A stretch of DNA of 64,000 nucleotides from an uncultured Arcobacteraceae bacterium (lineage in GTDB: Bacteria; Campylobacterota; Campylobacteria; Campylobacterales; Arcobacteraceae), in contig CAXHZO010000005.1 of assembly GCA_964022095.1 (NCBI GenBank), forward strand, positions 32,001-96,000, in the 5' to 3' direction. Numbering within the stretch: position 1 is the stretch's first letter; each line of letters begins with the position of its first letter. This document shows, piece after piece, positions 16,026-59,192 of the stretch. The translations under genes and the position numbers were made by a program. The notes under the pieces are model-generated. The model searched no databases. It saw nothing but the letters and a program-made list of their open reading frames with translations, and had not been told where the DNA came from.

Positions 16026-16039
16026 TTTAGCTATTAAAA

Positions 16040-17020: not shown

Positions 17021-17030
17021 AAGTTTTTCC

Positions 17031-39808: not shown

Positions 39809-40339
39809 ATGAATAAAACAGTTGTATATCAAGGTGTTGAGGGAGCATATTCTCATCTTGCAAGTAGTAAACTTTTTCTTAACTCAAAATTTATTGCATC
39901 TGATTCTTTTTTAGAATCAATGCAATTAGTAGAGCAAGGTAAGGCAGACTTTGGAGTAATCCCAATAGAAAACTCATCAGCTGGTAGAGTTGAAGATATT
40001 TATAGGCTTGTTTCTAAATATAATAGATGAGTATTTTTATCTAATAAAGCATATATAACATCTCTTATATTTAGTATGAGAAATATACCAGTAGCACTTT
40101 ATAAAGCTCTTGGTGCTTTTGCTACTAATGGAATAGATTTAATCAAAATAGAGAGTTATTCAGGTATTGGAAGTATGTATTCAACTCAGTTTCATGTGGA
40201 TTTATATGGTCATACGGATGAAAAAAGACTGCAATTAGCCCTTGATGAGCTGAGGTTTTTTGTGGAAGAATTGAAAGTTATTGGTGTTTATGAAAGGCAT
40301 GAGTATAGAGATAAAATGTGTGAGTTAAACCATTTATAA
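39809..40339 (+). pseudogene. prephenate dehydratase remnant (internal deletion and in-frame TGA)
   Basis: N-terminal YQGVEGAYSH..PIENSSAGRV joined almost directly to ACT domain RNIPVALYKALGAFATNG..KIESY; the two ORFs share a frame separated by TGA at 40028-40030; middle of the catalytic domain is missing. Confidence 0.8.
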
Positions 40340-40361
40340 AATGAAGCAATAGCTTCATTTT
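40338..40361. terminator. bidirectional terminator between convergent genes
   Basis: AAAATGAAGC-AATA-GCTTCATTTT. Confidence 0.65.
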
Positions 40362-41427
40362 ATTTGTTGATATACTCAACTATAATATCTCCCATTTGAG
40401 AAGTACTTAAAACTTCTTTTGCATCAAAAGATGATAAATCTTTAGTTCTATAGCCATCTTTTAGTACATTTTTAATAGCTTCTTGTATTATATTTGAAGA
40501 TTCTTCTTCATTTAGTGAATATTTAAGCATCATTGCAGCACTCTCAATTGTAGCTATTGGATTGGCTATTCCAAGACCTGCAATATCAGGAGCTGAACCA
40601 TGAATAGGTTCATAAACAGCTGTTTTATTTCCAGTTGAAGCACTAGGAAGAAGACCAATTGAACCTACAACCATTGAAGCTGTATCACTTAAAATATCTC
40701 CAAAAATATTTCCTGTAACTATTACATCAAATTGTTTTGGGTTTCGCACTAATTGCATAGCTGCATTATCAACATACATATGAGAAAGTTCAACTTCAGG
40801 ATACTCTTTTGATAACTCAATCATAGTTGACCTCCAAAGTTGAGATACCTCTAAAACATTTGATTTATCAACAGAGCATAATCTCTTATCTCTTTTCATG
40901 GCTAGTTCAAAAGCAGTTTTTCCGATTCTTTGGATTTCTTCTTTTGTATAAACCATAGTATTAAAAGCTTTTTGTCCATCATTTTGCCTTGGTTCACCAA
41001 AATATATACCACCAATTAACTCTCTTATAACCATAATATCACAGCCTTTTATGATCTCAGGCTTTAGTGTTGAGGCATTTGTAAGTTCATCATAAACAAT
41101 GGCAGGTCGTAAGTTTGCAAATACTCCTAACTCTTCTCTAAACTTTAAAAGCCCAGATTCAGGTCTTAGATGTCTAGGTAAGTTATCCCATTTCTCACCA
41201 CCAATAGCACCAAATAAACAAGCATGAGATTTTAAAACCCCATCAACTGTCTCTTTTGGAAGAGGGTGACCTATTTTATCAATGGCTACTCCACCCATTA
41301 GATACTCTTTATATTCTAAATTGAAGCCACACTTTTTACTAATGGCATCTAATACTTTCACAGCTTCATTTATAATTTCAACGCCAATTCCATCACCTTT
41401 GATTAATGATATATTATAATTTTTCAC
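40360..41427 (-). CDS. leuB: 3-isopropylmalate dehydrogenase
   Basis: [57 protein letters not shown]. Confidence 0.93.
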
Positions 41428-41438
41428 ATATTCTCCTT

Positions 41439-42233
41439 TTATATTGCACTTTGAACCACACCCGCATCAGCTCTTAAAACTGCACCATTTGTAGCACTTG
41501 ATATTGGACTTGCTGTATAAACAATCATATTTGATACCTCATCTACTTCTGTAAATCTTTTAAGTAGTGATGTTGGTCGTATATTTTTAAAGAACTCTTC
41601 TTGCATTTGCTCAAAAGTGAAGTTCATTTGTTTTGCATAATCATATAAAAAAGTAGTAACACCCTCTGATTTTGTAGGTCCTATGATGATAGAGTTTGAA
41701 GTTACATTGGTGCCAGCTGTAAGCTCAGCTATTCCTCTAGCGATTGATAATTGTGCAGTTTTACTCATACCATAGTGAATCATCTCTTTTGGTATTTGAT
41801 ACGCTGATTCACTTGAAATAAAGATAATTCTTCCCCAATTTTGCTTTAGCATAGAAGGTAAGTAAGATTGAGATAGTCTTACTCCACTCATTACATTTGT
41901 ATTAAACATACTAAGCCAATCTTCTTCCTCTAAACTTGTAAACTCTTTTGTCTCAAAAATTCCAAGGTTATTGATTAGAATATCTACTTTTGATAGTTGT
42001 TTTATTAATTTATCGCAGCCTTCTTTACTTGAAAGGTCAGCAACTATTCCTTCAACTTTTGCATTTTTGTTATAAGATTTTATTTTTTTGATAGATTCTT
42101 GAACATTTTGTTCATCTCGACCATTTATATATACATAAGCACCCTCATCACATAATTTTTTAGCTGTTGCAAAACCAACGCCTAAAGTTGAACCTGTAAC
42201 AAGAGCAGTTTTATTTTGTAGTTTTAAATCCAT
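41439..42233 (-). CDS. short-chain dehydrogenase/reductase
   Basis: [28 protein letters not shown]. Confidence 0.92.
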
Positions 42234-42261
42234 ACTAATACTCCTTTATAAAAATAAAGGC

Positions 42262-42293
42262 ATCTTAGTAGAATTTAATCGTATTATTATCGC
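42262..42293 (-). promoter_or_regulatory. GCGAT-box promoter of SDR-leuB
   Basis: Minus strand GCGAT-AATAAT-ACGAT-TAAATTCTAC-TAAGAT. Confidence 0.75.
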
Positions 42294-42300
42294 AGTTTAT

Positions 42301-43059
42301 TTAAAACAGTTCTATTTTATATCCTGAGTTATTTTGATTTACTATTAAGTCTTTATGTATTTTACTTCTAAGTCTAAATAAAACAGACCTAAAAGCAGCA
42401 TATCCAGCTGGTTCATCTTGCCAAATTGCATACTCCATTTGTTCTTGGGATACAAATTGCCCAGCACTTCTACAAAGTAAATCAATAATCTTTTTCTCTT
42501 TAGAAGTTAGTTTTATAGGTTCATCTCCATAATATAAAACTTCTACTTCTTTATCATAAAGATAACCATATTTAAGTTGTATTGTTCTATGATTTTGTTC
42601 TTTATTTAAAGATAATTGATGCTCTAAAGTTTTGTTTATATTTTCAACAGCATCTAGTTTTTTAATTTTTTCATTATCTTCTTTTGCTTTACTAAGAGCC
42701 ACTTCAATAGCAGCATGTAAGCTTTGTTTTTTATATGGTTTGATTATATATCCATATGCTAAAGTTTGAGAAGCTTCTTTTATAGTTTTTATTTCTGAAT
42801 TTGCAGTTAGAAAAACCACAGGTACCTCAGGAATTGAGTTTTTTAACTCTTTTGCAAGCTCAATTCCAGTAGTTGGTCCTTTTAGGTAAATATCCATCAA
42901 AATTAAGTCAGGTTTAGCACCTTTTTCTAATAAAGCTATAGTTTTACATCTATTTGGAGCAACACCACAAACTTTATATCCTAATTCATGTAGTGTTTCT
43001 TTTAGATTTAGTGCAATTATTGATTCATCTTCAACAATTAAAATTTCAATTTTGCTCAT
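42301..43059 (-). CDS. response regulator, receiver plus OmpR/PhoB-type winged-helix DNA-binding domain
   Basis: IVEDE, LMDIYL (phosphoacceptor Asp), LTA, KP; C-terminal IKLTSKEKKIIDLL...IW...LFRLRSKI...GYKI. Confidence 0.92.
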   Translation of the reverse strand: MSKIEILIVEDESIIALNLKETLHELGYKVCGVAPNRCKTIALLEKGAKPDLILMDIYLKGPTTGIELAKELKNSIPEVPVVFLTANSEIKTIKEASQTLAYGYIIKPYKKQSLHAAIEVALSKAKEDNEKIKKLDAVENINKTLEHQLSLNKEQNHRTIQLKYGYLYDKEVEVLYYGDEPIKLTSKEKKIIDLLCRSAGQFVSQEQMEYAIWQDEPAGYAAFRSVLFRLRSKIHKDLIVNQNNSGYKIELF

Positions 43060-43061
43060 TA

Positions 43062-44357
43062 TTATTCTCCCTCATCCTTAGAAAAAATTATATTACACTC
43101 TAAACCATTATTATTCTTAAACTCTATAGTTCCATCTAGTTGATCTTCAATAATTGAGTGAATAAGTTGCATTCCAATTGAATCACTTTTATATAGCGAG
43201 TCAATGTCATCTAATCCATCTCCATTATCACGAATTTTTACGTGGATCTGTTCATCTACTTTTTTCATATGAATACATAATAAATTATCTCTATCTTCTT
43301 TAAATGCATATTTTAAAGCATTTACACAAAGTTCATGTAGAACCATTCCTATTTGTATACATCTATTTGTAGAAAAACTCAAATTATCAATGTGTACATC
43401 TACATTTAATGTTGTGTTTTGTGAAATATATAACTCTTTTATATCATCAACAAGTCTTTTTATATAATTTTTAAGATTTATATATGCTAGGTTTTCACCT
43501 AAATATAAAAACTCATGAACTAAAGCCATAGTATGAATTCTACTTCTACTTTGTTGTAAGATATAAATCATATCTTTATCTTTTGTTCGTCGCTCTTGCA
43601 TATTTAGTAGTGATGATATTATTTCCATATTGTTTTTTACTCTATGATGAATCTCTTTTAGTAATATGTCTTTTTCTTCAACTGACTTTTGTAATTCTTG
43701 ATTCATTTTAGTGATTTTTGTTCTGTATTCTTGTCTTTGTGTCATATCTCTTGAAAAAGCACAAATATATTCATTTCCATTATGTGTAAAACCATGACCT
43801 GAAACTTCCACAGGAAAAATTGTTCCATCCTTTCTAATTTGTGTAGTTTCTAATCTCCAATTTTTATGATGGTAGATATTGTACATACACTCTTTTGCAG
43901 TCTCCCTATCAAAATTTGGGTCCATATCTTCTAAATACATATGATTTAAAAACTCATCTTTACTTCTTCCTATCATCTTACAAGCAGCTTCATTTACATA
44001 AATGAATTTTGCATCTAATGTAAACCAGTATATAGCATCAATAGAGTTGTTCAATGCAAACTCATAAGGAACAAGCCTTTCTTTATCTTTATCTTTTAAC
44101 TCTTTGTATGAACCCTCAATTCTTGAAACAACTTTTTGCATATGATTTAACATGATAAATAAAATTATTCCAGTTACTATTAAAAATATAATTCCAAAAG
44201 TGAAAGGCCCTTCTTGGCTTAGTGAATGATACTTTGAAAACTCACTTACAAGTCTATCAATAAACAAAATACCAACAGCTCCTATTAGTATATATGTTAA
44301 TGAAAACTTTGTTGGTATGGATTTATTATTTAAAATATAGTTCTTAACTCTTCCCAT
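43062..44357 (-). CDS. membrane PAS-domain sensor histidine kinase, HisKA_2 family
   Basis: Two TMs, PAS (YVNEAACKMIG, RKDGTIFPVEV), EIHHRVKNN H-box, ELCVNALKYAF, DNGDG, G box; ATG at 44357 preferred over GTG at 44411. Confidence 0.92.
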   Translation of the reverse strand: MGRVKNYILNNKSIPTKFSLTYILIGAVGILFIDRLVSEFSKYHSLSQEGPFTFGIIFLIVTGIILFIMLNHMQKVVSRIEGSYKELKDKDKERLVPYEFALNNSIDAIYWFTLDAKFIYVNEAACKMIGRSKDEFLNHMYLEDMDPNFDRETAKECMYNIYHHKNWRLETTQIRKDGTIFPVEVSGHGFTHNGNEYICAFSRDMTQRQEYRTKITKMNQELQKSVEEKDILLKEIHHRVKNNMEIISSLLNMQERRTKDKDMIYILQQSRSRIHTMALVHEFLYLGENLAYINLKNYIKRLVDDIKELYISQNTTLNVDVHIDNLSFSTNRCIQIGMVLHELCVNALKYAFKEDRDNLLCIHMKKVDEQIHVKIRDNGDGLDDIDSLYKSDSIGMQLIHSIIEDQLDGTIEFKNNNGLECNIIFSKDEGE

Positions 44358-44419
44358 TTTACTGCTCTTATTATAGATTTGAAAAATTATATCATAAATA
44401 AAAATATTCACTAATAACT

Positions 44420-44451
44420 GCGATAATTTTGCGATTTTTTTCCATTAAGAT
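44420..44451 (+). promoter_or_regulatory. GCGAT-box promoter of dmpKLMNOP
   Basis: GCGAT-AATTTT-GCGAT-TTTTTTCCAT-TAAGAT. Confidence 0.8.
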
Positions 44452-44493
44452 TCAAATTGAATTAAAAATTCATAATTGAAAAAGGTAGGTGTT

Positions 44494-44742
44494 ATGGCTA
44501 ATGAATCACCGTTTGAAAGAAAATATGTACATATTACTGATGTTAAATCAAACGATTTAGTTGAGTTTGATTTCTCTATAGGTGATCCATGTATGTATGT
44601 TGAACTTGCATTGCCGAAAAAGCAATTTGATGAGTTTTGTAAAAGAAATGCAGTTAAGCATTTAACAAGAGATCAAGAAATTGATGTGGAAAACGACAAG
44701 CATAAGTGGCAGTATGGTGTTGTTGGAACACTAAGTAAATAA
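44494..44742 (+). CDS. dmpK: phenol hydroxylase assembly subunit P0
   Basis: VEFDFSIGDP..YVEL.LP...F.EFC; first gene of the cluster; ATG at 44494. Confidence 0.92.
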   Translation: MANESPFERKYVHITDVKSNDLVEFDFSIGDPCMYVELALPKKQFDEFCKRNAVKHLTRDQEIDVENDKHKWQYGVVGTLSK

Positions 44743-44755
44743 AGGAGTTGAAAAT

Positions 44756-45751
44756 ATGTCTTTAGATATAAAAAGTATAGATATTAAGCCAAAAAGAGAA
44801 ACTTTTGGACACGTGGAAAGAAGAATTGGTGAAGGTAAGATGGCTTCAAGATATGAAGAGGCAACATTTGATATTCAGCCAGTTGCAAACTTTCATTATA
44901 GACCTTATGCAAATCCAGAGTTTGAGTTATATGATCAAAATAAAACTAGCATTAAAATGGAAGACTGGTATAAGTTTTTAGACCCAAGACAATACCACTA
45001 TGCTTCATATGTAACAGCAAGAGCAAAACAACAAGAAGTTGCAGAACAAAACTTTGTTTTTGTAGAAAAAAGAAATATGTTAGATGTAATGCCAGGAGAT
45101 ATAAAACAAGAAATCTTGAATTATGTTTTACCACTTAGACACTATGAGTGGGGAGCAAATATGAATAACCTTCAATTATGTTCAGAAGGATATGGTGCAG
45201 CTATTACAAATGCTTATATGTTCCATGCAGAAGATAGATTAGGTAATGCTCAATATCTTACAAGAATTGGATTATTACTTAGTGAAAATGAACCTGCTGT
45301 TTTAGATAATGCAAAAGATAAATGGTTAAATGATGAAGCATGGCAGCCACTTAGAAAAGCAATGGAAGATAGCTTTGTTTTACAAGATTGGTTTGAGCTT
45401 CATATAGCGCAAAATGTGATTTTCGATGGTTTTATTCATCCTTTAGTATTTGATAAGTACGAGCAAGAACTAAACCAAAGAGGTGGAACTGCTCAAACTA
45501 TGATGACAGAGTTTATCACATCTTGGAATGATGAATCTGCTAGATGGATTGATATGACAGTTAAAGTAGCAGCTTTAGAACGTGATGAAAATAAAGAGTT
45601 ATTAAATCAATGGTGTAAAAAGTATATTGATATTGCAAGTAATGCAGCCCTAGCAATTGCTAAAAATATAGTTAATAATCCAGAAGAAACAGTTAATAAC
45701 ATACAAGAGCAATTAGTGGCAAGATTAAATAAAAATGGTTTAAACCTATAG
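44756..45751 (+). CDS. dmpL: phenol hydroxylase beta subunit P1
   Basis: ASRYEEAT.DIQP..NFHYRP, DPRQY.Y, PLRH..WGANMNN, DWFEL. Confidence 0.94.
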   Translation: MSLDIKSIDIKPKRETFGHVERRIGEGKMASRYEEATFDIQPVANFHYRPYANPEFELYDQNKTSIKMEDWYKFLDPRQYHYASYVTARAKQQEVAEQNFVFVEKRNMLDVMPGDIKQEILNYVLPLRHYEWGANMNNLQLCSEGYGAAITNAYMFHAEDRLGNAQYLTRIGLLLSENEPAVLDNAKDKWLNDEAWQPLRKAMEDSFVLQDWFELHIAQNVIFDGFIHPLVFDKYEQELNQRGGTAQTMMTEFITSWNDESARWIDMTVKVAALERDENKELLNQWCKKYIDIASNAALAIAKNIVNNPEETVNNIQEQLVARLNKNGLNL

Positions 45752-45759
45752 GAGAAAGA

Positions 45760-46029
45760 ATGTCAAAGGTATTTTTAGCACTTCAAGCAGTAGATGAAAC
45801 AAGAGCTATTATTGAAGCTATACAAGAAGATAATGAAAATGTTGAGGTTGAACCACAGCCTGCCATGGTAAAAATCTCAGCTGAGAAAAAAATGGTAATA
45901 AATGCTCAAACTGTATCTGACAAATTAGGTAGAGATTGGGATCCACAAGAGTTACAGTTAGTTTTAATTTCACTAGCTGGAAATGTTGATGAAGATTATG
46001 ACCACTTTACAATTTATTGGGAAAATTAG
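45760..46029 (+). CDS. dmpM: phenol hydroxylase regulatory subunit P2 (MmoB/DmpM)
   Basis: R.IIEAI.EDN, QPAMVKI, LISLAGNVDED. Confidence 0.95.
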   Translation: MSKVFLALQAVDETRAIIEAIQEDNENVEVEPQPAMVKISAEKKMVINAQTVSDKLGRDWDPQELQLVLISLAGNVDEDYDHFTIYWEN

Positions 46030-46040
46030 GAGAAAATATT

Positions 46041-47561
46041 ATGACTATGAGTACACAAAAAAGAAAAAAACGTCTAAATATGAAAGACAAATATAAGTAT
46101 ATGACAAGACTTGGTTGGGAAACTACATATCAAGATATGGATGATGTTTTCCCTGAAGATAAATTTGAGGGTATAAAAATTCATGATTGGGAAGCTTGGG
46201 AAGATCCATTTAGAATGACAATGGATGCTTATTGGAAATACCAAGGTGAAAAAGATAAGAAACTATATGCAATTATTGATGCTTTTGCTCAAAATAATGG
46301 ACAAAAAAATATTTCAGATGCAAGATATGTATCCGCATTAAAACTGTTTTTAACAGGTGTTTCACCTTTAGAATATCAAGCACATAGAGGTTTTGCAAAT
46401 ATTGCAAGAGCTTTTAGAGGTGATGGTCCAAGAGTTGCATGTCAAATGCAAGCTATTGATGAGTTAAGACATGTTCAAACACAAATTCATACTTTAAGCC
46501 ATTATAACAAATACTTTAATGGTTTTTCAGAGTGGGCACATTGGCATGATAATGTATGGTACTTATCTGTTCCTAAATCATTCTTTGATGATGCAAGAGC
46601 AGCAGGTCCTTTTGAGTTTATTATTGCTATTGGATTCTCATTTGAGTATGTATTAACTAATCTATTATTTGTACCGTTTATGAGTGGTGCAGCTTATAAT
46701 GGAGATATGGCAACAGTTACATTTGGATTCTCAGCTCAAAGTGATGAGGCAAGACATATGACTTTAGGTTTACAAGCTATCAAGTTCTTATTAGAGCAAG
46801 ACCCTGCAAATGTTCCTATTGTTCAAAAGTGGATTGATAAGTGGACTTGGAGAGGTTATAAAGTTTTAGGACTAGTATCTGCAATGATGGATTATATGTT
46901 ACCTGATTCACCACAGTCTTGGAAAGAAGCTTGGGAATTATATTTTGAGCAAAATACAGTTGCACTATTTAAAGATTTAGAAAGATATGGAATTACAGTT
47001 CCAGATTGTGCAGCAACAATAAAAGCTGAAAAAGAGCATATTTCTCATCAAGTTTGGATGACACTATATACTCATAATGCAGCAGCACCTTTCCATACGT
47101 GGATTCCAGATGAGAAAAAAATGGATTGGTTAAGCGAAAAGTATCCTGAAACTTTCGATAAATATTACAGACCAGTTTATGAACACTGGAATAAGTTAGA
47201 AAAAGAAGGTACGAGATACTACTCTGAAATGCTTCCTCAGTTATGTCAAACTTGTCAGTTACCAATGTTAGCAACAGAAGTTGAAAAAGGTGAACCAACT
47301 CAAATTGCACATAGACATACTATGTACAATAATGAGAGATTCCATTTCTGTTCAGATCATTGTCAAGATATTTTTGAAAATGAACCTGAAAAGTATATTC
47401 AATCTTGGTTACCAGTTCATCAAATCTTCCAAGGAAACTGTGGAGGTGCTACACTTCCAGAAGTACTTAAATGGTATAAGGTTGAATTTGGACAAGATAA
47501 TCTTGATTATGTAGGTTCTCAGGATCAAAAAATGTGGAAAGAATGGAAGGGAGAAGCATAA
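46041..47561 (+). CDS. dmpN: phenol hydroxylase di-iron alpha subunit P3
   Basis: IDELRH and QSDEARH di-iron motifs, WEDPFR, YHS-like HFCSDHC; SD AGGAG before ATG 46041. Confidence 0.97.
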   Translation: MTMSTQKRKKRLNMKDKYKYMTRLGWETTYQDMDDVFPEDKFEGIKIHDWEAWEDPFRMTMDAYWKYQGEKDKKLYAIIDAFAQNNGQKNISDARYVSALKLFLTGVSPLEYQAHRGFANIARAFRGDGPRVACQMQAIDELRHVQTQIHTLSHYNKYFNGFSEWAHWHDNVWYLSVPKSFFDDARAAGPFEFIIAIGFSFEYVLTNLLFVPFMSGAAYNGDMATVTFGFSAQSDEARHMTLGLQAIKFLLEQDPANVPIVQKWIDKWTWRGYKVLGLVSAMMDYMLPDSPQSWKEAWELYFEQNTVALFKDLERYGITVPDCAATIKAEKEHISHQVWMTLYTHNAAAPFHTWIPDEKKMDWLSEKYPETFDKYYRPVYEHWNKLEKEGTRYYSEMLPQLCQTCQLPMLATEVEKGEPTQIAHRHTMYNNERFHFCSDHCQDIFENEPEKYIQSWLPVHQIFQGNCGGATLPEVLKWYKVEFGQDNLDYVGSQDQKMWKEWKGEA

Positions 47562-47923
47562 TGGCAATTGTAAGTAAAGGTGAATATCCAGTAATTATGA
47601 TGGATAGTGTAGATAAGTTTCATGGTAACCAATTAGTATATGTAGGTTGGGATAAACATAAGTTAATCAATTCAGCGATGGCTTTTCCTTTACCACCACA
47701 AATGCCTTTTAAGGCATTAGTGCATGAAGTAATGCCAGGTTGTTATAAAGATCATCCAGATTTTGAAAAAGTTGTATGGGATGATTCTGTTATTTGGAGA
47801 TTAAACGGTGAAGAGTTTACTCCTGATTTTGAAAAATCTCTTGAAGATAATGGAATTGATCATAAGTCATTAGTTAGATTTGAAACACCAAATCTAACAG
47901 GAATTAACGGAGTAGGAATGTGA
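47561..47923 (+). CDS. dmpO: phenol hydroxylase gamma subunit P4
   Basis: YVGWDKH, PP.MPF, HPDF, PDFEKSL.DNGI.HKS. Confidence 0.94.
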   Translation: MAIVSKGEYPVIMMDSVDKFHGNQLVYVGWDKHKLINSAMAFPLPPQMPFKALVHEVMPGCYKDHPDFEKVVWDDSVIWRLNGEEFTPDFEKSLEDNGIDHKSLVRFETPNLTGINGVGM

Positions 47924-48978
47924 GTTATCAAGTAGAAATAGAACCAACAGGAGATGTAGTAGAAGTTCAAGATGGTCAAACTATTCTTGATGCTGCATTA
48001 AGACAGGGGGTATATATTCCCCATGCGTGCTCTCATGGTTTATGTGGTACTTGTAAGGTAGAGATATTAGAAGGTGAAGTTGACTATGGTGCAGCTTCTC
48101 CTTTTGCCCTTATGGATATGGAAAAAGATGAGGGAAAATGTCTTGCTTGTACTGCTACACCAATGGAAGATTGTGCTATAGAAGCTGATGTTGATGAAGA
48201 TCCAGATGCTAAATCAATACCTGTAAAAGATTTTATGGGAACAGTTGTTGAGGTGAAGGATTTAACACCTAGAATAAAAGGTATTTTTATAGAATTAGAT
48301 GAAGAGATTGAGTTTCAAGCAGGTCAATATGTACAATATCATGTACCAGGATTTGAAGAACCAAGAGCATTTTCTTTATGTAACTCTTCAAATGATAAAA
48401 AAATTGTAGAGTTAAATATTTCTTTAGTTCCAGATGGAGAAGCAACTCCATGGATTCATAAAAATGTAAAAGTTGGTGCAAGAAGAAAAGTATCAGGACC
48501 TTATGGAAGATTTTTTGTAAGAGAATCTGCTCAAAAACCTATGATTTTCTTTGCAGGTGGTTCAGGTCTTTCAAGTCCAAAATCTATGATTTTAGAGCAG
48601 CTTGAAAATGGAAGTAAACAAGAAATAACACTTTTTCATGGTGCTAGAAATGAAGAAGAGTTATATTATGCAGATTTATTTAGAGACTTAGAGCAAAAGC
48701 ATGAGAACTTTACATATGTACCTGTTTTATCCGATGAAGATACTCCTTCTTGGGAAGGGAAAAAAGGTTTTGTAAATGATGCTGCAAAAGAAGTTTTTGA
48801 AAATGACTTCTCTGGAAAAAAAGCATATCTTTGTGGACCTCCACCTATGATAGATGCTTGTATTACAACATTAATGAGAGGAAGACTTTACGAAAAAGAT
48901 ATTTATACTGAAAAGTTCTTCTCAAAAGCTGACTTAAATGCTGAAAATCAGCGTTCCCCTTTATTTAAATCAATTTAA
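47920..48978 (+). CDS. dmpP: phenol hydroxylase reductase P5 (2Fe-2S/FAD/NADH)
   Basis: CSHGLCGTC...LAC, RAFS, AGGSGLS, YLCGPP, RSPLFK. Confidence 0.96.
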   Translation: MSYQVEIEPTGDVVEVQDGQTILDAALRQGVYIPHACSHGLCGTCKVEILEGEVDYGAASPFALMDMEKDEGKCLACTATPMEDCAIEADVDEDPDAKSIPVKDFMGTVVEVKDLTPRIKGIFIELDEEIEFQAGQYVQYHVPGFEEPRAFSLCNSSNDKKIVELNISLVPDGEATPWIHKNVKVGARRKVSGPYGRFFVRESAQKPMIFFAGGSGLSSPKSMILEQLENGSKQEITLFHGARNEEELYYADLFRDLEQKHENFTYVPVLSDEDTPSWEGKKGFVNDAAKEVFENDFSGKKAYLCGPPPMIDACITTLMRGRLYEKDIYTEKFFSKADLNAENQRSPLFKSI

Positions 48979-48999: not shown

Positions 49000-49031
49000 G
49001 CGATTTTTCTGCGAAACTATTTCTGTAAAGT
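49000..49031 (+). promoter_or_regulatory. GCGAT-box internal promoter of the meta-cleavage genes
   Basis: GCGAT-TTTTCT-GCGAA-ACTATTTCTG-TAAAGT. Confidence 0.72.
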
Positions 49032-49076: not shown

Positions 49077-49397
49077 TTGAAATATGAAATCTTCGTAAAA
49101 GATAAAGACAAAACTAAAACTTGTCTTGAATCTAAACATCTTATGGATGGTTTATATGTATATGATAATCTAGTTCCAAAGGGTTGTCATAATGGTGCCT
49201 GTGGACTTTGTAAGGTTAAAGTTCATAGAGGAGACTACAAAAAATGCAAAATGAATAGAAAACACATCTCATGTGAAGAAGAGAGTGCAGATATTCTTTT
49301 AGCTTGTAAGACATTTCCTAGAAGTGATATGGAAATAGAATTTATACGTAGAGACTTATCTAAAGAAAAATCCCAAGTTTATGTACTTGGTAATTAA
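49077..49397 (+). CDS. dmpQ: XylT/DmpQ-type 2Fe-2S ferredoxin (C23O reactivation)
   Basis: GCHNGACGLCKV, MNRKH, LAC..PRSD; directly before C23O. Confidence 0.88.
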   Translation: MKYEIFVKDKDKTKTCLESKHLMDGLYVYDNLVPKGCHNGACGLCKVKVHRGDYKKCKMNRKHISCEEESADILLACKTFPRSDMEIEFIRRDLSKEKSQVYVLGN

Positions 49398-49414
49398 ATA
49401 ATTAGGAGAAAGTA

Positions 49415-50362
49415 ATGAGCAGTATTATGAGATTAGGTCATGTTGATATTAATGTATTAGATATTAATGAATCAAGAGACTATTATGAAAATATTATGGG
49501 TATGGAAGTTACAAGAGAAGACTCTGATGGAACACTTTATTTAAAGTGCTGGGATGAATGGGATAAATACAGTCTTATTTTAAGACCTAGTGAAGAAGCA
49601 ACATATAATAAGGTTGCGTATAAAGTAGAAAAAGATTCTGATATAGATGATTTTAAAGAAAAAATCGAAAAATATGGAATAAAAACAGAGATTTTAGAAG
49701 CTGGAACTATTCCTGAATGTGGAAGGGTATTAAAGTTTATATCTCCAAGTGAGCATGAATTTAATTTATATGCTGAAAAAACATTTGTAGGTAAAAAAGT
49801 AGGTCACACTAATCCTGCACCTTGGCCAATTGATGGAAAAGGTATCAAAGCTCACTGGATTGATCATATTTTATTAATGACTCAAGGTCCTGAAAAATTA
49901 ATGGAAGCTACTAAGTTCTTTGAAGAAGTATTTGATATGAAATTAGCAGAGCAAGTTTGTGTAGGACCTGAGGGCTCAGTTCAGGCTGCAACATGGTTAA
50001 GTGCTGGAAACACTCCTCATGATTTAGCTTTTGTTGCTGGAGCAGAAACTGGTATGCATCATTTTGCATTTTTCTTAGATGGTTGGAATGATATTTTAAG
50101 ATCAGCAGATGTTATGGCTATGAATAATGTTAAGTTAGATGTTACTCCTCAAAGACATGGTATTACAAGAGGTGAGACTATTTATTTCTTTGACCCATCA
50201 GGACATAGACTTGAGACATTTGCAGGTCTAGGTTATGCAGTTTGTAAAGATATGCCAACAGTTACTTGGACAGAAGATGAACTATGGAGAGGTATTTTCT
50301 ATCATACAGGTCAAGAAAATGGTGCATTTACAACTGCATATACATTATCAGCTTATAAATAA
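49415..50362 (+). CDS. dmpB: catechol 2,3-dioxygenase
   Basis: MRLGHV, YLKCWDEWD, DH, PHDLAF, HHFAF, RHGITRGETIYFFDPSG. Confidence 0.95.
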   Translation: MSSIMRLGHVDINVLDINESRDYYENIMGMEVTREDSDGTLYLKCWDEWDKYSLILRPSEEATYNKVAYKVEKDSDIDDFKEKIEKYGIKTEILEAGTIPECGRVLKFISPSEHEFNLYAEKTFVGKKVGHTNPAPWPIDGKGIKAHWIDHILLMTQGPEKLMEATKFFEEVFDMKLAEQVCVGPEGSVQAATWLSAGNTPHDLAFVAGAETGMHHFAFFLDGWNDILRSADVMAMNNVKLDVTPQRHGITRGETIYFFDPSGHRLETFAGLGYAVCKDMPTVTWTEDELWRGIFYHTGQENGAFTTAYTLSAYK

Positions 50363-50384
50363 AAGAAAAATTTAGGAATTTAAA

Positions 50385-50813
50385 ATGTTGACAAAAACAT
50401 CAAGAGATTTGACAAGTCAAACAGCTTTAAAGCTTTGTGAGTTATCAATTGAAAAGGCTAATGAATTAAATATAAAAATAAATGTAAGTGTTACAGATTC
50501 AAAAGGGATTGAACTTGCATTTATAAGAATGGATGATTCTTTTATTCATTCAAGTCAAATAGCAAAAGATAAGGCTTATACAAGTGCAAGTTTTGGTTTT
50601 AACTCAGATATATGGACTCAAGTTTTCAAAAGTGAACCTCATTTAGAACAAGGTTTTTCTAATAGAGATAGATTAATACCTTTTGGTGGAGGGCTTACTA
50701 TTTTTGAAAATGAAGAAAAAGTTGGAGCCATTGGTGTTTCAGGCGGAACTGAACAAGAAGATATTATTTGCGCGAAGTATGCAATAGAAAGGATAGGATT
50801 AAATAATGAATAA
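50385..50813 (+). CDS. GlcG/HbpS-family haem-binding protein
   Basis: AFIRMD, DKAYTSASFG, GAIGVSGG..QED. Confidence 0.88.
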   Translation: MLTKTSRDLTSQTALKLCELSIEKANELNIKINVSVTDSKGIELAFIRMDDSFIHSSQIAKDKAYTSASFGFNSDIWTQVFKSEPHLEQGFSNRDRLIPFGGGLTIFENEEKVGAIGVSGGTEQEDIICAKYAIERIGLNNE

Positions 50814-52263
50814 AGTACAACACTATATTAACGGACAATTTTTAGATTCATCTTGTGGGGAGTTTTTTGAGAATATCAACCCTATGAATGGTCAAGTATT
50901 ATCTCAAGTAGCCCTAGGACGAGAAGATGAAGTGAATGCAGCAGTTGCAGCAGCTAAAGCAGCTCTTACTGGTGAATGGGGTCAAATGAAATTAAATGAC
51001 AGAATTGCAATGATGTATGAAATTGCTGAGGAAATTGATAGAAGATTTGATGATTTCTTAGAAGCTGAATGTTTAGATACAGGTAAACCTTATTCTATTG
51101 CAAGACATATTGATATCCCAAGAGGTGCTGCAAATTTTAAAGTATTTGCAGACACTATGAAATCTGTTGCAGATGAAGCTTATAGAATGGATACACCTGA
51201 TGGAAAAGTAGCTATGAATTATTCTATGAGAAAACCTAAGGGGGTTATTGGTGTAATTTCTCCATGGAATTTACCATTACTTTTAATGACTTGGAAAGTT
51301 GGTCCTGCAATGGCTTGTGGAAATACAGTAGTTGTGAAACCATCACAAGTTACACCAACAACAACATCTTTACTTGGTGAAGTAATGTCAAAAGTTGGTG
51401 TTCCTTCTGGTGCATATAATGTAGTACAAGGAAAAGGTTCAATTACTGGAAATTTATTAACAGCTCATAAAGATGTAGATGCTTTAACTTTTACAGGTGA
51501 GACAAAAACAGGTGAGATGATTATGAAAGCTTGTTCTCATGGTGTTAGAGATGTATCCTTAGAGCTTGGTGGAAAAAACCCAGCTATTGTTTTTGCTGAT
51601 TGTGATATGGATAAGGCAATTGCTGAGACTACAAGATCGTGTTTTGCTAACTCTGGTCAAGTTTGTTTAGGAACTGAAAGAGTTTATGTTCAAAGAGAAA
51701 TTTTTGATGAATTTGTATCAAAACTAAAAGAGTCAGCTTTAAAACTAAAACTTGGAATTCATAATGATGAATCAGTTGATATGGGGCCAGTAGTTAGTGC
51801 TGCTCATAGAGATAAAGTATTAGAGTTTTATGACATAGCTAAAAAAGAGGGTGCAAATGTAATTTTAGGTGGAGGTGCTCCTAAAATGGAAGGTGATTTA
51901 GCAAATGGATTCTTTGTTGAACCTACTATTTGGACTGGTCTTCCTGAAGATGCAACAGTTGTAAAACAAGAAGTATTTGGACCTTGTTGTCATATTGCAC
52001 CTTTTGATAGTGAAGAAGAAGTTATTAAAATGGCTAATGATACAGATTATGGACTAGCATCTACAATATTTACAGAAAATTTAGATAAGGCTCATAGAGT
52101 AGCTTCACAAATTGACTCAGGAATTGTATGGATTAATTCATGGTTCTTAAGAGATTTAAGAACACCATTTGGTGGAATGAAAGGTTCTGGTATCGGAAGA
52201 GAGGGTGGTCACCACTCATTAGAGTTCTATACTGAACTTAAAAACGTATGTATAAAAATGTAA
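50806..52263 (+). CDS. dmpC: 2-hydroxymuconic semialdehyde dehydrogenase
   Basis: DIPRGAANF, PWNLPLLLMTWK, ELGGKN, GQVCLGTER, WFLRDLRTPFGG. Confidence 0.96.
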   Translation: MNKVQHYINGQFLDSSCGEFFENINPMNGQVLSQVALGREDEVNAAVAAAKAALTGEWGQMKLNDRIAMMYEIAEEIDRRFDDFLEAECLDTGKPYSIARHIDIPRGAANFKVFADTMKSVADEAYRMDTPDGKVAMNYSMRKPKGVIGVISPWNLPLLLMTWKVGPAMACGNTVVVKPSQVTPTTTSLLGEVMSKVGVPSGAYNVVQGKGSITGNLLTAHKDVDALTFTGETKTGEMIMKACSHGVRDVSLELGGKNPAIVFADCDMDKAIAETTRSCFANSGQVCLGTERVYVQREIFDEFVSKLKESALKLKLGIHNDESVDMGPVVSAAHRDKVLEFYDIAKKEGANVILGGGAPKMEGDLANGFFVEPTIWTGLPEDATVVKQEVFGPCCHIAPFDSEEEVIKMANDTDYGLASTIFTENLDKAHRVASQIDSGIVWINSWFLRDLRTPFGGMKGSGIGREGGHHSLEFYTELKNVCIKM

Positions 52264-52272
52264 GGGTGTAAT

Positions 52273-53067
52273 ATGTCAATGACTCAAGAAAAAATTGAAA
52301 AGTATGGAAATGAATTGTATGAGGCTTTAAAAGGAAACTATACAATTGAGCCTATTTCAAATAGAGAACCTGATTCTACAATTGAAGATGCTTATGCTAT
52401 TCAACATCACTTTTTAAAAAGAAGAATGGAAGATGATGGAAGTAAAATTATTGGTAAAAAAATTGGTGTTACATCAAAGGTTGTTATGGACATGTTAGGT
52501 GTTCATCAACCTGATTTTGGTTACCTTTTATCAGATATGATTTACTCTGATGGTGATGTAATAAATGTAACAAGTGGAATGATTCAGCCAAAAGCAGAGG
52601 GTGAAATAGCCTTTGTTTTAAAAGAAGATTTATGTGGACCAGGAGTTACAGCTGCTGATGTTATTAAAGCAACAAAATTTGTAATGCCTTGTTTTGAAAT
52701 AGTTGATTCAAGAATCAAAGATTGGAAAATTAAAATCCAAGATACAGTTGCTGATAACGCTTCATGTGGATATATGGTATTTGGAGGACAAAGTGTATCT
52801 CCTTTAGATGTTGATTTAACAACTTGTGGAATAACTTTAGAGAGAAATGGTGAGTTATTACATACAGGAGCAGGTGCAGCAGCTCTTGGTAGTCCTGTAA
52901 ATGCAGTAGTTTGGCTTGCAAATAAACTTGGAGAGTTTGGTGTATCGCTAAAAGCAGGTGAGGTTATTTTATCAGGGGCTTTATGTGCAATGGTAGATAT
53001 AAAACCAGGTGATAATATGACTGCAAGTATTGGTGGCGTTGGTTCTGCCTCAATCAGATTTGAATAA
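52273..53067 (+). CDS. dmpE: 2-oxopent-4-enoate hydratase
   Basis: GKKIGVTS, QPDFG, PKAEGE, DTVADNAS. Confidence 0.93.
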   Translation: MSMTQEKIEKYGNELYEALKGNYTIEPISNREPDSTIEDAYAIQHHFLKRRMEDDGSKIIGKKIGVTSKVVMDMLGVHQPDFGYLLSDMIYSDGDVINVTSGMIQPKAEGEIAFVLKEDLCGPGVTAADVIKATKFVMPCFEIVDSRIKDWKIKIQDTVADNASCGYMVFGGQSVSPLDVDLTTCGITLERNGELLHTGAGAAALGSPVNAVVWLANKLGEFGVSLKAGEVILSGALCAMVDIKPGDNMTASIGGVGSASIRFE

Positions 53068-53079
53068 AAGGTAAATACA

Positions 53080-53964
53080 ATGGAAAAAATAAATTGTGCA
53101 TTAATTGGGTCTGGAAATATTGGAACAGACCTAATGTATAAACTAAAAAGAAGTGAAATATTAAATCCTTTATGGATGGTTGGTATTGACCCTGAGTCTG
53201 ATGGTTTATTAAGAGCTAAAGAAGATGGTATGAAAACAACAGCCGAAGGTGTTGATGGATTACTTCCTTTTATTAAAGAAGATGGTGTAAAGATTGCATT
53301 TGATGCAACATCAGCTTATGTTCATGGTGAAAATAATAAAAAGTTAGCGGAACTTGGAGTTCAAGTTATTGATTTAACTCCTGCTGCAATAGGACCATTT
53401 TGTGTGCCATCAGTTAATATGGAAGAGCTACTTGCTCAAAATACTCAAAATGTAAATATGGTTACTTGTGGTGGGCAAGCTACTATTCCTATGATTGCCG
53501 CTGTATCAAAAGTTCAGGAAGTTGAATATGCAGAAATTGTAGCAACAGCAGCTTCTAAGTCAGCAGGTCCAGGAACTCGTGCTAATATTGATGAGTTTAC
53601 TGAAACTACAAAACTTGGAATAGAGCAAGTAGGTGGTGCTAAAAAAGGTAAAGCAATTATTATTTTAAATCCTGCAGAACCACCTTTAATGATGAGAGAT
53701 ACAATTCATTGTTTAACAAGTGAAAAACCTGATGAAGAAGCTATTACTAAATCAATCCATGAAATGGTTGAAACTATGCAAGAGTTTATTCCAGGGTATG
53801 TGTTAAAAAATGGACCAGTTTTTGATGGTAATAAAATCTCTATTTGGTTAGAAATTGAAGGTTTGGGGGATTATTTGCCTAAGTATGCAGGTAACCTAGA
53901 CATTATTACAGCAGCAGCAACAAATATTGCAGAACAAATGGCTAAAAAGATTAAAGGAGCATAA
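53080..53964 (+). CDS. dmpF: acylating acetaldehyde dehydrogenase
   Basis: [39 protein letters not shown]. Confidence 0.96.
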
Positions 53965-53965
53965 G

Positions 53966-54994
53966 ATGGATTTACAAGGTAAAAAAATAAAAATTCATGA
54001 TATGTCTTTAAGAGATGGAATGCACTCAATTAGACATCAATTTTCACTTGAAGAGATGACAAATATGTCAACAGCAATGGATAAAGCAGGTGTTCCTTTT
54101 ATTGAAGTTACTCATGGAGATGGACTTGGTGGTTCATCACTTAACTATGGATGGGGAAGACATACTGATGAAGAGTGGTTAGATGCAGTAGTGCCAAATA
54201 TGACACAAGCTAAAATCTCAGCTCTTTTACTTCCAGGAATCGGTATTGTAAAAGATTTAGAAAAAGCTGTTGATCATGGTATTTCTATGGTTAGAGTAGC
54301 AACTCATTGTACGGAAGCTGATTGTTCAGCCCAACATATAAAAGCTGCTAAATCAATGGGACTTGATACAGTTGGATTTTTAATGATGGCTCATATGGTT
54401 GATGAAAAAAGATTAGTTGAGGAAGCTTCTAAAATGGTTTCTTATGGAGCTACTACTATTTATGCAACTGATTCAGCTGGCTACTTACTTCCTGATATGG
54501 TAAGTTCTAGAATTAAAGCATTAAAAGCAGAGTTTGGTGATGAAATTGAACTTGGTTTCCATGGGCACAATAATTTATCAATGGGTGTTGCAAACTCTTT
54601 AGCTGCTATTGAAGCAGGTGCTACACGAATTGATGCTTCACTTGCAGGTTTTGGAGCAGGTTCTGGAAACACTGCAACTGAAGTATTAGTTGCTGTTTGT
54701 AATAGAATGGGTGTTGATACAGGTGTTAATCTTGAAGCTATTGAAGATGCAGCTGAGGATATTGCACTTCCTATTATGGGTAAACCTACAAGAATCTCAA
54801 GGGATTCTATTACTTTAGGTTATGCAGGTGTTTATTCATCATTTTTACTATTTGCTAGACGAGCAGAAGAAAAGTATGGAATAGATGCAAGATCTTTACT
54901 TGTTGAATTAGGTAGAAGAGGAATGATTGGTGGTCAAGAGGATATGATTGATGATTGTGCTATGGAATTAGCTAAACAAAAAGGATTATTATAA
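53966..54994 (+). CDS. dmpG: 4-hydroxy-2-oxovalerate aldolase
   Basis: [45 protein letters not shown] at 53966 after SD AGGAG. Confidence 0.96.
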
Positions 54995-55782
54995 TGGCAT
55001 TAGATAAAGCAACAATAGAAAAACTTGCAAAGCATTGTGAAGATGCAGAATTGCAAGCTTATGAGATTACAAAAATTACTGATGATTACCCAGAAATGAC
55101 ATATGAAGATGCATATGATATTCAATGGACTGCAAGGGCTGCTAAGGAAGCAAGAGGTCATAAAATAGTTGGTATGAAAATGGGGCTTACTTCACAGGCT
55201 AAAATGAAACAAATGGGAGTTCCAAATCCTTGTTATGGATATCTTGCTGATTACTTTGCATATGGTGATGGGGCAGAAATACCATATGACGAATTAATTC
55301 ATCCAAAAGTTGAAGCTGAAATTGCTTTTGTATTAAAAGATGATTTAAGTGGTCCGGGATGTCATATAGGTGATGTATTAGCTGCTACTGATTTTGTAAT
55401 GCCTGCTGTTGAGATTATTGATTCAAGATATAAGGATTTTAAATTTGATTTAAAATCTGTAATTGCTGATAACTCTTCATCTTCTAGATATGTAAGTGGT
55501 GGTATGGCAAAAAAAGCTAATGAAGTTGATTTAAAAACTTTAGGTGTCGTAATGGAAATAAATGGTGAAGTTGTACAACTTGGAGCAGGAGCTGCAGTTC
55601 TTGGTCATCCAGCAACTGCTATTGCAATGCTTGCAAATATGATGAGTGAACGAGGTGAGGTTTTAAAGGCTGGATCTTATATCTTAAGTGGAGCAATTAC
55701 AGCTGCAACTACTGTTAATAAAGGTGATAATGTAACTGTTAAGTTTCAAGATTTAGGAACTTTATCATTTAAATTTGTATAG
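54994..55782 (+). CDS. dmpH: 4-oxalocrotonate decarboxylase
   Basis: KMGLTS.AKMKQMGV, IHPKVEAE, FKFDLKSVIADN. Confidence 0.94.
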   Translation: MALDKATIEKLAKHCEDAELQAYEITKITDDYPEMTYEDAYDIQWTARAAKEARGHKIVGMKMGLTSQAKMKQMGVPNPCYGYLADYFAYGDGAEIPYDELIHPKVEAEIAFVLKDDLSGPGCHIGDVLAATDFVMPAVEIIDSRYKDFKFDLKSVIADNSSSSRYVSGGMAKKANEVDLKTLGVVMEINGEVVQLGAGAAVLGHPATAIAMLANMMSERGEVLKAGSYILSGAITAATTVNKGDNVTVKFQDLGTLSFKFV

Positions 55783-55790
55783 AAAATAAG

Positions 55791-55937
55791 AGCAACTTAT
55801 TGCTTTTAAAAAATGGGATATTTTAAGGACAACTTGTTGTCCCTTTAGGGTTTGCTTCTTTAAAGATGGCTTTGCCATCTTGTTAAAAGAAGTTAAATAT
55901 GTAAGGTCCCTTAAAAAATGGGACATTTTTTAAGGAG
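55791..55937 (+). repeat. intercistronic cluster of hairpins with a duplicated ~24-bp unit
   Basis: TTAAAAAATGGGA(T/C)ATTTT..AAGGA at 55806-55829 and 55911-55936; palindromes AGCAA/TTGCT, GGACAA/TTGTCC, AAGATGGC/GCCATCTT. Confidence 0.75.
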
Positions 55938-55943
55938 TATATT

Positions 55944-56135
55944 ATGCCAATAGCAACTATAAATATAATCGAAGGCAGATCTGATGAGCAAAAAGAGAAG
56001 CTTATAGAAAAAGTAACTCAAGCAATTCACGAAGCTATAGATGCACCAAAACAAAATGTTAGAGTGATTTTAAATGAAATGCCAAAACAACATTTTGGAA
56101 TAGGTGGAGAAAGTGTAAAAAAGATGGGGCGATAA
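55944..56135 (+). CDS. dmpI: 4-oxalocrotonate tautomerase
   Basis: Catalytic Pro1, EGRS.EQK, VRV, HFGIGG. Confidence 0.95.
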   Translation: MPIATINIIEGRSDEQKEKLIEKVTQAIHEAIDAPKQNVRVILNEMPKQHFGIGGESVKKMGR

Positions 56136-58920: not shown

Positions 58921-58952
58921 GCGATTAATCTGCGATAAGTTTTTATTATTAT
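58921..58952 (+). promoter_or_regulatory. GCGAT-box promoter upstream of an ORF-free structured segment
   Basis: GCGAT-TAATCT-GCGAT-AAGTTTTTAT-TATTAT. Confidence 0.72.
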
Positions 58953-58958
58953 TACCTT

Positions 58959-59146: not shown

Positions 59147-59160
59147 AACTTATAAAAAGT

Positions 59161-59192
59161 GCGATAATTTTGCGATTTAATTTAATTAAAAT
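59161..59192 (+). promoter_or_regulatory. GCGAT-box promoter of porin gene
   Basis: GCGAT-AATTTT-GCGAT-TTAATTTAAT-TAAAAT; first 16 bp identical to the dmpK site. Confidence 0.8.

Follow-up and report, generated by a model that had tools for sequence, protein, structure and literature searches.

Predicted control of phenol hydroxylase genes in Arcobacteraceae by a PAS/HisKA_2 kinase and a winged-helix response regulator at a GCGA direct repeat

The control of dmp-type phenol hydroxylases is a standard example of transcription that depends on sigma-54 and ligand-binding activators. Here, we analyze a stretch of 64,000 nucleotides from an uncultured Arcobacteraceae bacterium (contig CAXHZO010000005.1 of assembly GCA_964022095.1; henceforth termed the window, ca. 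30% GC), in which a six-subunit phenol hydroxylase operon, dmpKLMNOP, lies next to divergent genes for a sensor histidine kinase (HK) together with a response regulator (RR). An earlier note, made from the sequence alone, had proposed that this PAS/HisKA_2 kinase and winged-helix regulator control the hydroxylase instead of DmpR and sigma-54. The proposal is supported by synteny, by a promoter box of the form GCGA-N7-GCGA, by the kinase tree and by the lack of a sigma-54 element or activator close by. The wiring that we consider probable is that the PAS domain senses an aromatic inducer, that HK phosphorylates D56 of RR, and that RR binds the GCGA half-sites and activates sigma-70 promoters of the dmp, meta-cleavage and accessory genes. 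The evidence is comparative throughout and comes from the sequence of the window and of related loci.

Relatives of the pair were collected by a scan of species-representative genomes that was seeded with the kinase alignment and used one genome per species. The scan returned at least 54 loci; all locus counts given here (L001–L024, groups A–E) are among the matches listed and describe a sample, not a census. Genes in these loci were annotated by tblastn with the window proteins, and dmpK frames were read directly. L010 and L016 lie on one contig, and L011 and L018 come from one metagenome-assembled genome. Features of the window are compiled in Table 1.

Table 1. Features of the window around the kinase–regulator pair, with positions in the 64,000-nucleotide stretch (TM, transmembrane helix; AF2, AlphaFold2; aa, amino acids)
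Feature	Position	Strand	Basis	Details
RR, 252 aa	42301..43059	-	Pfam, alignments, AF2 model	REC; helix 111-155 (~45 residues); OmpR-type winged helix 159-249; recognition helix GYAAFRSVLFRLRSK
HK, 431 aa	43062..44357	-	Pfam, homologue starts, hydropathy, AF2 model	TM1 ~17-37, short loop, TM2 ~52-72, PAS ~97-210, HisKA_2 DHp, HATPase domain
Extended -10 (TGATATAAT) of likely kinase-regulator promoter	44386..44394	-		40 nt from box start
dmpKLMNOP, six-subunit phenol hydroxylase	44494..48978	+	Pfam	K 44494-44742, L 44756-45751, M 45760-46029, N 46017-47561, O 47534-47923, P 47920-48978
Meta-cleavage operon	49077..56135	+	Pfam, NCBIfam	ferredoxin, catechol 2,3-dioxygenase (C23O), HbpS-like, dmpC, E, F, G, H, I; dmpI 55944-56135
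Short-chain dehydrogenase/reductase (SDR) gene	41439-42233	-		leuB-like gene begins 11 bp after it
OprD-like porin gene	59268-60434		Pfam OprD	
Box 1, GCGATAATTTTGCGA	44420-44434	+		-10-like TAAGAT 44446-44451; dmpK, ATG 59 nt past box
Box 2, GCGATTTTTCTGCGA	49000-49014	+		-10-like TAAAGT 49026-49031; ferredoxin-C23O operon
Box 3, GCGATTAATCTGCGA	58921-58935	+		TATTAT 11 nt downstream; no ORF >=60 aa for 332 nt
Box 4, GCGATAATTTTGCGA	59161-59175	+		TAAAAT 11 nt downstream; OprD-like porin
Box 5, GCGATAATAATACGA, one mismatch	42279-42293	-		TAAGAT 11 nt downstream; SDR, leuB-like

The divergent arrangement described in the earlier note, which the open reading frames (ORFs) of the window confirm, recurs in all 12 listed loci with a kinase of the window group (group A: L001–L010, L012 and L017; kinase identity 63–94%), where the pair faces a dmpK-led operon, dmp(K)LMNOP. 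The nearest of these is an Arcobacter isolate (L001; kinase 94%, DmpN 97.7% identical), and further relatives among the listed loci belong to Poseidonibacter, Halarcobacter and Aliarcobacter. Group A covers two hydroxylase lineages, DmpL being 70–95% identical in one and ca. 48% in the other. At five places (group B: L007, L011, L012, L013 and L016; kinase 63–65%), a second pair faces a lactate dehydrogenase (LDH)-like gene and the ferredoxin–C23O meta operon; group A and group B pairs occur in the same genome in L007, in L012 and on the L010/L016 contig. Another pair closes a benABCD-benE operon with a major facilitator superfamily gene (group D: L018; kinase 60%). In group C (L014 and L015; 63–64%) the pair follows a type I secretion operon, with L015 also carrying a convergent Rieske-type diiron monooxygenase/meta cluster, and in group E (L019–L024, from Sulfurimonas and Sulfurovum; 48–52%) kinases without TMs lie beside methylcitrate-cycle genes and an alcohol dehydrogenase.

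A maximum-likelihood tree separates group A kinases, with group C nested among them, from group B kinases, which group with D. The five operon-type labels need 4 changes on this tree, which is the minimum, compared to a mean of 10.2 for shuffled labels and 0 of 200 shuffles as low. Because kin share labels, this result speaks for co-inheritance of kinase type and operon type and not for function. On these comparisons, the pair represents a module conserved in Arcobacteraceae, whose paralogues are found next to meta-cleavage and benzoate operons. The earlier suggestion of a recruited host-type system is supported as regards two-component control, while a one-off recruitment in this genome gives way to a module that is shared within the family.

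Two groups have neighborhoods of their own kind. In L014 (237–12038) and L015 (244–5770), the pair lies directly 3' of the type I secretion operon (OEP, C39-ABC, HlyD), which in L014 is preceded by a 1371-residue protein with a Peptidase_C80 domain. The TM-less homologues in L019 (3183–11285) and L021 (4678–11798), of ca. 352 residues, adjoin genes for an acyl-CoA synthetase, methylisocitrate-lyase-like and citrate-synthase-like proteins and an alcohol dehydrogenase, a setting that suggests control of propionate or alcohol catabolism.

The HK–dmpK intergenic region of the window spans 136 bp with ca. 20% GC. The dmpK gene most likely starts at ATG 44494, with the ribosome-binding site AAGGTAGG upstream; TTG 44476 is disfavored against this start. 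When 13 such intergenic regions (the window and 12 listed loci) were aligned by eye, one conserved island stood out from AT-rich surroundings and consisted of two GCGA tetramers 11 bp apart, a box that is present in 13 of 13. The window contains four exact copies of GCGA-N7-GCGA, compared to 0.00 expected from 100 shuffles, all of them on the plus strand and inside the aromatic cluster; a fifth copy was found with one mismatch allowed and a -10 required. Each of the four exact boxes is followed, exactly 11 nt downstream, by TAnnnT. The 17 sources that hold group A, B or D pairs (381 kb) contain 46 boxes, 39 of which show TAnnnT at this distance; in 44 unique box instances, T stands at the first of the three -10 positions in 37, A at the second in 43 and T at the third in 44. 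By comparison, 30 loci of other phyla (536 kb) hold 7 boxes, 0 with that -10, and the loci of groups C (L014, L015) and E (L019–L024) have no box even with one mismatch and the -10.

The box also precedes genes other than dmpK. An exact copy lies ahead of the ferredoxin gene in 10 of the 11 sources that hold its start, and ahead of the SDR orthologue in 5 of 11 (L004, L005, L009, L012 and L017), the one-mismatch copy in the window being a sixth; the leuB-like gene of L009 has an exact box of its own. Other box-led genes in related loci encode LDH- and malate dehydrogenase-like enzymes, Peripla_BP_6 binding proteins with a twin-arginine (Tat) signal, small SBP_bac_3-like proteins and a chemoreceptor. 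The chemoreceptor (4HB_MCP and MCPsignal) directly follows a box in L012 (12073–14011) and follows a small SBP-like gene behind a box in L009 (12059–14794), which hints that chemotaxis may be induced along with the aromatic genes. Box 3 has a good -10 (TATTAT), yet the stretch behind it in the window (58921–59160) contains nothing beyond a hydrophobic ORF of 22 codons that starts at 59009 and an inverted repeat at ca. 59116–59134; candidate roles for this region are a leader peptide, a small RNA or the relic of a promoter.

With the -10 taken at its usual place, the box falls at about -38 to -24, i.e., at the -35 position. The box promoters have a weak -10 and no visible -35, and a TG extension occurs in only 4 of 42 unique promoters. 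On the kinase strand, TGnTAnAAT stands at a fixed 40-nt offset from the box in 12 of the 13 HK–dmpK intergenic regions, L012 having none by this pattern, and relative to the kinase promoter this offset puts the box at about -55 to -41. One site, at fixed phase to both, appears to be shared by a kinase promoter that looks constitutive and by catabolic promoters that look dependent on an activator. A direct repeat with an 11-bp period is what the tandem winged-helix domains of OmpR/PhoB proteins bind, and the pho boxes of PhoB have a matching geometry, a direct repeat upstream of the -10 in place of the -35; the likeness of the GCGA box to this class II layout is one of sequence geometry only.

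The same position admits the opposite sign of control: RR, whether phosphorylated or not, would act as a repressor that occupies the box over the -35 and keeps the promoters shut until it is released by an inducer. The interval from about -38 to -24 overlaps the contact zone of RNA polymerase, and OmpR-family proteins can repress from positions that overlap the -35. The promoters behind the boxes, 38 of 42 of them lacking TG, look activator-dependent instead, the extended -10 sits on the constitutive-looking kinase promoter, and the geometry equals that of pho boxes activated by PhoB. We consider repression highly improbable and continue with RR as an activator.

No sigma-54 route came to light near the dmp operon. 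Sigma54_activat had no match in a Pfam scan of 69 window ORFs, which comprised 66 of the 73 ORFs of at least 90 residues as well as dmpK, dmpM and one 87-residue ORF, the other 7 ORFs of at least 90 residues being nested in or antisense to longer ones. No GAFTGA-like motif occurred when all six frames were read for the window and for 24 related loci (479,797 nt in total). The element GG-N10-GC occurs on neither strand of 44358–44494, nor on the plus strand of 44195–44494, and TGGCAC-N5-TTGC with up to two mismatches, which has 37 matches in the window compared to 28.1 expected, has none within 44358–44493. These searches agree with the earlier note, which had reported neither an NtrC-family gene in the window nor a sigma-54 box ahead of dmpK. 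A generic scan of 41300–45000 for sigma-70 promoters and terminators was uninformative, with 17 promoter-like sites compared to 23.5 in shuffles and 0 terminators. Passages of Miller et al. (PMC2147049) report A. butzleri, a member of the same family, to be without RpoN, FliA and NtrC/NtrB-type proteins. Such a lack would offer a reason for the replacement of a DmpR-type activator.

A further alternative is that the adjacency means nothing: the box would be read by a regulator encoded elsewhere, or a distant DmpR and sigma-54 would induce dmp, and the pair would serve another function. Only 64 kb of the genome are in view, the SDR and leuB-like genes that adjoin the pair are boxed as well and could be its ancestral target, and the L014 pair stands without aromatic genes. 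Chance adjacency fits poorly with 13 of 13 divergent arrangements in which the box keeps a fixed phase to both promoters, with boxes that among the related loci occur only alongside group A, B or D pairs, and with a window in which the 69 scanned ORFs (36–64 kb and beyond) hold no other transcription-factor domain. No -24/-12 element precedes dmpK, and the missing GAFTGA motif likewise speaks against a sigma-54 activator. This alternative appears highly improbable to us, and the adjacent pair is retained as the likely regulator.

RR has the domain content of the OmpR/PhoB family, a receiver with phosphoacceptor residues and a C-terminal Trans_reg_C domain (Response_reg, PF00072, 2.2e-23, 83 bits; Trans_reg_C, PF00486, 2.8e-09, 37.4 bits compared to a cut-off of 26.2). 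All 20 aligned sequences keep residues E10, D11, D56, T85 and K107, and Pfam gave neither an ANTAR nor a GerE/LuxR match. In the AF2 model (mean predicted local distance difference test score, pLDDT, of 85.2), residues 159–249 form a beta-sheet, three helices and a wing, with the recognition helix at 220–233, and one unbroken helix, a linker that looks atypical for the family and through which RR may dimerize, runs between the receiver and the winged helix. No NCBIfam OmpR-family equivalog reached its cut-off, the top match being a PhyR receiver (87.5 compared to 240 bits), and among the best NCBIfam and Protein Data Bank (PDB) matches of the receiver are PhyR and 1s8n, the PdtaR antiterminator. 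The receiver is closer to the partners of HisKA_2/HWE kinases than to classical OmpR receivers, and RR therefore has the look of a phosphotransfer module of the HisKA_2 type with an OmpR-type output attached. The recognition helix, GYAAFRSVLFRLRxK, is near-invariant in groups A–D and differs at several positions in Sulfurimonas and Sulfurovum, whose loci have no box; this covariation weakly favors RR as the protein that reads GCGA.

The longest ORF for HK (43062–44411, minus strand) opens with GTG. The start is almost certainly ATG 44357, 18 codons inside this ORF, since an identical database protein has 431 residues and all 15 aligned homologues start at this codon or close to it. HK belongs to the HWE/HisKA_2 class, with a DHp domain that carries the H-box and is followed by an ATPase domain (HisKA_2, PF07568, 1.9e-25, 89.2 bits compared to a cut-off of 22.3; HWE_HK, 29.9 compared to 22.8 bits; HATPase_c, 26.2 bits, slightly below the cut-off of 26.4). 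The H-box EIHHRVKNN, the N-box residue N346 and the DNGDG motif are invariant in 16 of 16 aligned kinases. Upstream lies a PAS domain (PAS_9, 3.1e-12; PAS, 2.4e-11), preceded by hydrophobic segments centered at residues 23–32 and 57–68. The AF2 model (pLDDT 72.9 overall, ca. 88 in the PAS domain) shows helices at 11–43 and 51–103 with a 7-residue loop between them; the TM2 helix runs on into the PAS domain, and a long helix joins PAS to DHp. Hydropathy, model, Pfam and alignment agree with the earlier description of a kinase with two TMs, a very short loop, one PAS domain and this H-box. Several homologues carry the JGI name PdtaS, and the best solved relative in a sequence search of PDB chains is the LOV HWE/HisKA_2 kinase 4r3a (2.2e-09).

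As to the ligand site, the earlier note had named either the PAS domain or the TM pair. The majority-fraction conservation is 0.77 in the PAS domain and 0.53–0.67, the lowest of the protein, in the TM region; groups A and B differ at 8 fixed positions, of which 4 (110, 116, 125 and 173) lie in PAS and 0 in the TMs; and the Sulfurimonas and Sulfurovum homologues have no TMs. Since PAS is better conserved and contains group differences, and since TM-less homologues exist, the PAS domain is weakly favored over the TM pair as the likely site.

The wiring through the box could also hold with another signal, such as oxygen or redox state sensed through a PAS cofactor, an intermediate of the pathway such as catechol, or membrane stress that aromatics cause and the TMs perceive. 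PAS domains of HisKA_2/HWE kinases commonly carry cofactors, the nearest solved relatives being LOV blue-light kinases, and sensing of oxygen or redox state would be sensible for oxygenase genes in a microaerophile. The dmp-facing and meta-facing PAS domains are very similar, with just the four fixed differences, and some family members are neighbors of a type I secretion operon or of propionate (methylcitrate) genes. Substrate-specific sensing fits better, in turn, with the presence of at least two paralogous pairs in one genome, each at a different aromatic operon (L007, L012 and L010/L016), and with a kinase tree that tracks operon type. The TM region is the least conserved part of the protein, and the NCBIfam LOV-kinase models score far below their cut-off on HK (69 compared to 450 bits). 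We judge a different signal to be unlikely, though the likeliest of the alternatives, and favor an aromatic inducer.

The mechanism that we favor would begin at the membrane-anchored kinase, whose cytoplasmic PAS domain would sense an aromatic inducer, most likely phenol or methylphenols. HK would autophosphorylate on its HisKA_2 H-box and pass the phosphate to D56 of RR. Two winged-helix domains would then bind head-to-tail on the two GCGA half-sites, one helical turn apart, and, in the manner of PhoB at pho boxes, the bound RR would stand in for the -35 element, at about -38 to -24, and draw in RNA polymerase. Positive autoregulation may also follow from the shared box, which lies upstream of the divergent kinase promoter. 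Candidate members of the regulon in the window are dmpKLMNOP, the operon from ferredoxin and C23O through dmpC to dmpI, the SDR gene (possibly with the leuB-like gene), the orphan site at box 3 and the OprD-like porin. A two-component design would suit a lineage that reportedly has no sigma-54, in which a DmpR-type activator would not function.

Several observations weigh against this mechanism. The loci were picked by kinase similarity, so the sampling favors dmp operons that have the pair, and the genome beyond the 64 kb in view may contain rpoN, a DmpR homologue or some other protein that reads the box. The box pattern is imperfect: 7 of 46 boxes have no exact TAnnnT at +11, the ferredoxin gene of L008 has no exact box, and the sole box of the benzoate locus L018 has no downstream gene on its strand. 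A position over the -35 region would be just as compatible with repression. RRs of group C (L014, L015) share the recognition helix with no box nearby, and RR paralogues in one genome have near-identical recognition helices and the same half-site, which makes the assignment of regulators to promoters ambiguous. L014 is devoid of any aromatic genes, which means that the family is not exclusively aromatic. Finally, no ligand can be read from the PAS sequence, and PAS domains often sense oxygen or redox state via cofactors.

Beyond single operons, the aerobic aromatic metabolism of Arcobacteraceae might form one regulon that runs through GCGA-N7-GCGA with several PAS/HisKA_2 kinases, i.e., many sensors and one operator, an extension that we hold only tentatively. 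It would take in phenol hydroxylase, meta-cleavage and probably uptake proteins, the porin and the chemoreceptor; the PAS pocket of each kinase would be tuned to a different aromatic compound (phenol, catechol, benzoate), with RRs of near-identical helices; and, in a lineage that has no sigma-54, the arrangement would have taken over from the one-protein activators of the sigma-54 type that Proteobacteria use. If this were true, the system could be moved into common hosts as a phenol biosensor, because only sigma-70 would be needed, and PAS domains that bind phenols would offer a compact sensor independent of sigma-54. A conserved alternative built on sigma-70 and two components would show a mobile catabolic operon rewired for a host reportedly without sigma-54. 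With a defined operator, promoter geometry and regulon, the prediction is directly testable, and it aids the reading of aromatic degradation and its regulation in Arcobacteraceae of oil-, sewage- and marine-associated metagenomes.

The gene content of the cluster is that of a dmp-type pathway, a six-subunit hydroxylase (K–P) followed by ferredoxin, C23O and dmpC to dmpI. The hydroxylase subunits match Phenol_hyd_sub, Phenol_Hydrox (twice), MmoB_DmpM, Phenol_monoox and Fer2 with FAD_binding_6 and NAD_binding_1, and C23O exceeds the cut-off of the NCBIfam model catechol_2_3 (TIGR03211) with 391 bits. Past the meta operon follow luciferase-like, alpha/beta hydrolase, ApbA-like reductase, OprD-like porin and EamA transporter genes. 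Growth of Arcobacter sp. CAB on catechol by meta-cleavage has been described, and the passages found of that paper do not mention a regulator (PMC3656443). The top named relative of DmpN outside Arcobacteraceae comes from Sphingobacterium (79% identity), while proteins named as Arcobacteraceae reach 69–72% and unnamed matches up to 84%. Because the Sphingobacterium match exceeds those to the beta- and gammaproteobacterial enzymes (66–69%), the comparison suggests that the hydroxylase was transferred across phyla.

On the other side of the pair, the SDR and leuB-like genes (40360–42293) are probably co-transcribed, given their 11-bp spacing; the leuB-like gene has a housekeeping look and would be an odd member of an aromatic regulon. 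Two ApbA/PanE-like reductase paralogues (38778–39728 and 57974–58912) flank the aromatic cluster, and one stretch in L001/L002 matches them at ca. 72–73% and 43–45%, respectively. The 87-residue ORF at 40076–40339 resembles only the C-terminal ACT domain of the prephenate dehydratase in the window (32% over 66 residues, pairwise E 3e-05) and has a 92% match in L001; it may be a free-standing ACT protein or what remains of a gene at the cluster edge. Farther away, 8076–17612 is the lowest-GC stretch (0.23–0.25), where genes for a 925-residue protein with PLD, ResIII helicase and DUF3427, for a MazG-like protein and for an ABC/FtsX pair are found along with several ORFs that match no family. It looks like an island, possibly related to defense.

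A full-text literature search, mostly outside subscription journals, returned no paper on the pair, on its operator or on any regulator of phenol or catechol genes in Arcobacteraceae, and no description of a HisKA_2 kinase paired with an OmpR-type output through a long helix; as the earlier note had supposed, the system appears undescribed within this literature. Among known systems, DmpR, MopR and XylR of Pseudomonas CF600 and relatives resemble it in the divergent regulator gene beside a dmpKLMNOP-type hydroxylase and meta pathway, the role of DmpR as activator of the phenol operon being described in passages of PMC4486848. Where these systems use one ligand-binding activator, the window has two components with predicted phosphotransfer and sigma-70-looking promoters, and it contains no AAA+ sigma-54 activator, GAFTGA motif or -24/-12 promoter.

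TodS/TodT, TmoS/TmoT and StyS/StyR likewise place an aromatic operon under two-component control, with PAS as the proposed ligand site. Toluene is bound by a PAS domain of TodS, and TodS, TmoS and StyS are soluble hybrid kinases of large size, each with a double sensor (two PAS domains), a pair of kinase modules and an internal receiver, that work with regulators of the NarL/FixJ type. The difference from these systems that the earlier note had drawn is borne out by Pfam, which finds one PAS, one HisKA_2 and one HATPase domain in HK and Trans_reg_C in RR; the kinase is a membrane-anchored protein of 431 residues with a HisKA_2 DHp domain, and its partner has an OmpR-type winged helix. Activation of PstyA by StyR-P is reported in PMC2442086.

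In Campylobacterota, the nearest functional analogues are PceS/PceP of Sulfurospirillum and SulS/SulR of Sulfurimonas, OmpR-family regulators beside their target operons that, according to passages of PMC7755780 and PMC12936845, bind direct repeats in electrophoretic mobility shift assays, are autoregulated, and have repeats that overlap the -35 or lie upstream. Unlike HK, PceS has seven TM helices and a periplasmic domain, SulS is EnvZ-like with HisKA, and neither is reported with a PAS domain in those passages; the operators, CTATW-N17-CTATW and TTACA-type repeats, and the signals, tetrachloroethene and thiosulfate, also differ from the GCGA box and its presumed aromatic inducer. PhoR/PhoB shares the 11-bp-period direct repeats 10–11 nt upstream of the -10 that replace the -35, as well as the winged-helix output, and differs in its half-site, which is not GCGA, in a HisKA rather than HisKA_2 kinase, and in a short flexible linker in place of the ca. 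45-residue helix. PdtaS/PdtaR and other HWE/HisKA_2 systems (PhyR, single-domain receivers) have in common with the pair a HisKA_2 DHp domain and similar receivers. The receiver of PdtaR and AmiR is also followed by a long helix. In contrast to these systems, the output of RR is Trans_reg_C and not ANTAR, an anti-anti-sigma domain or none, and its kinase is anchored in the membrane.

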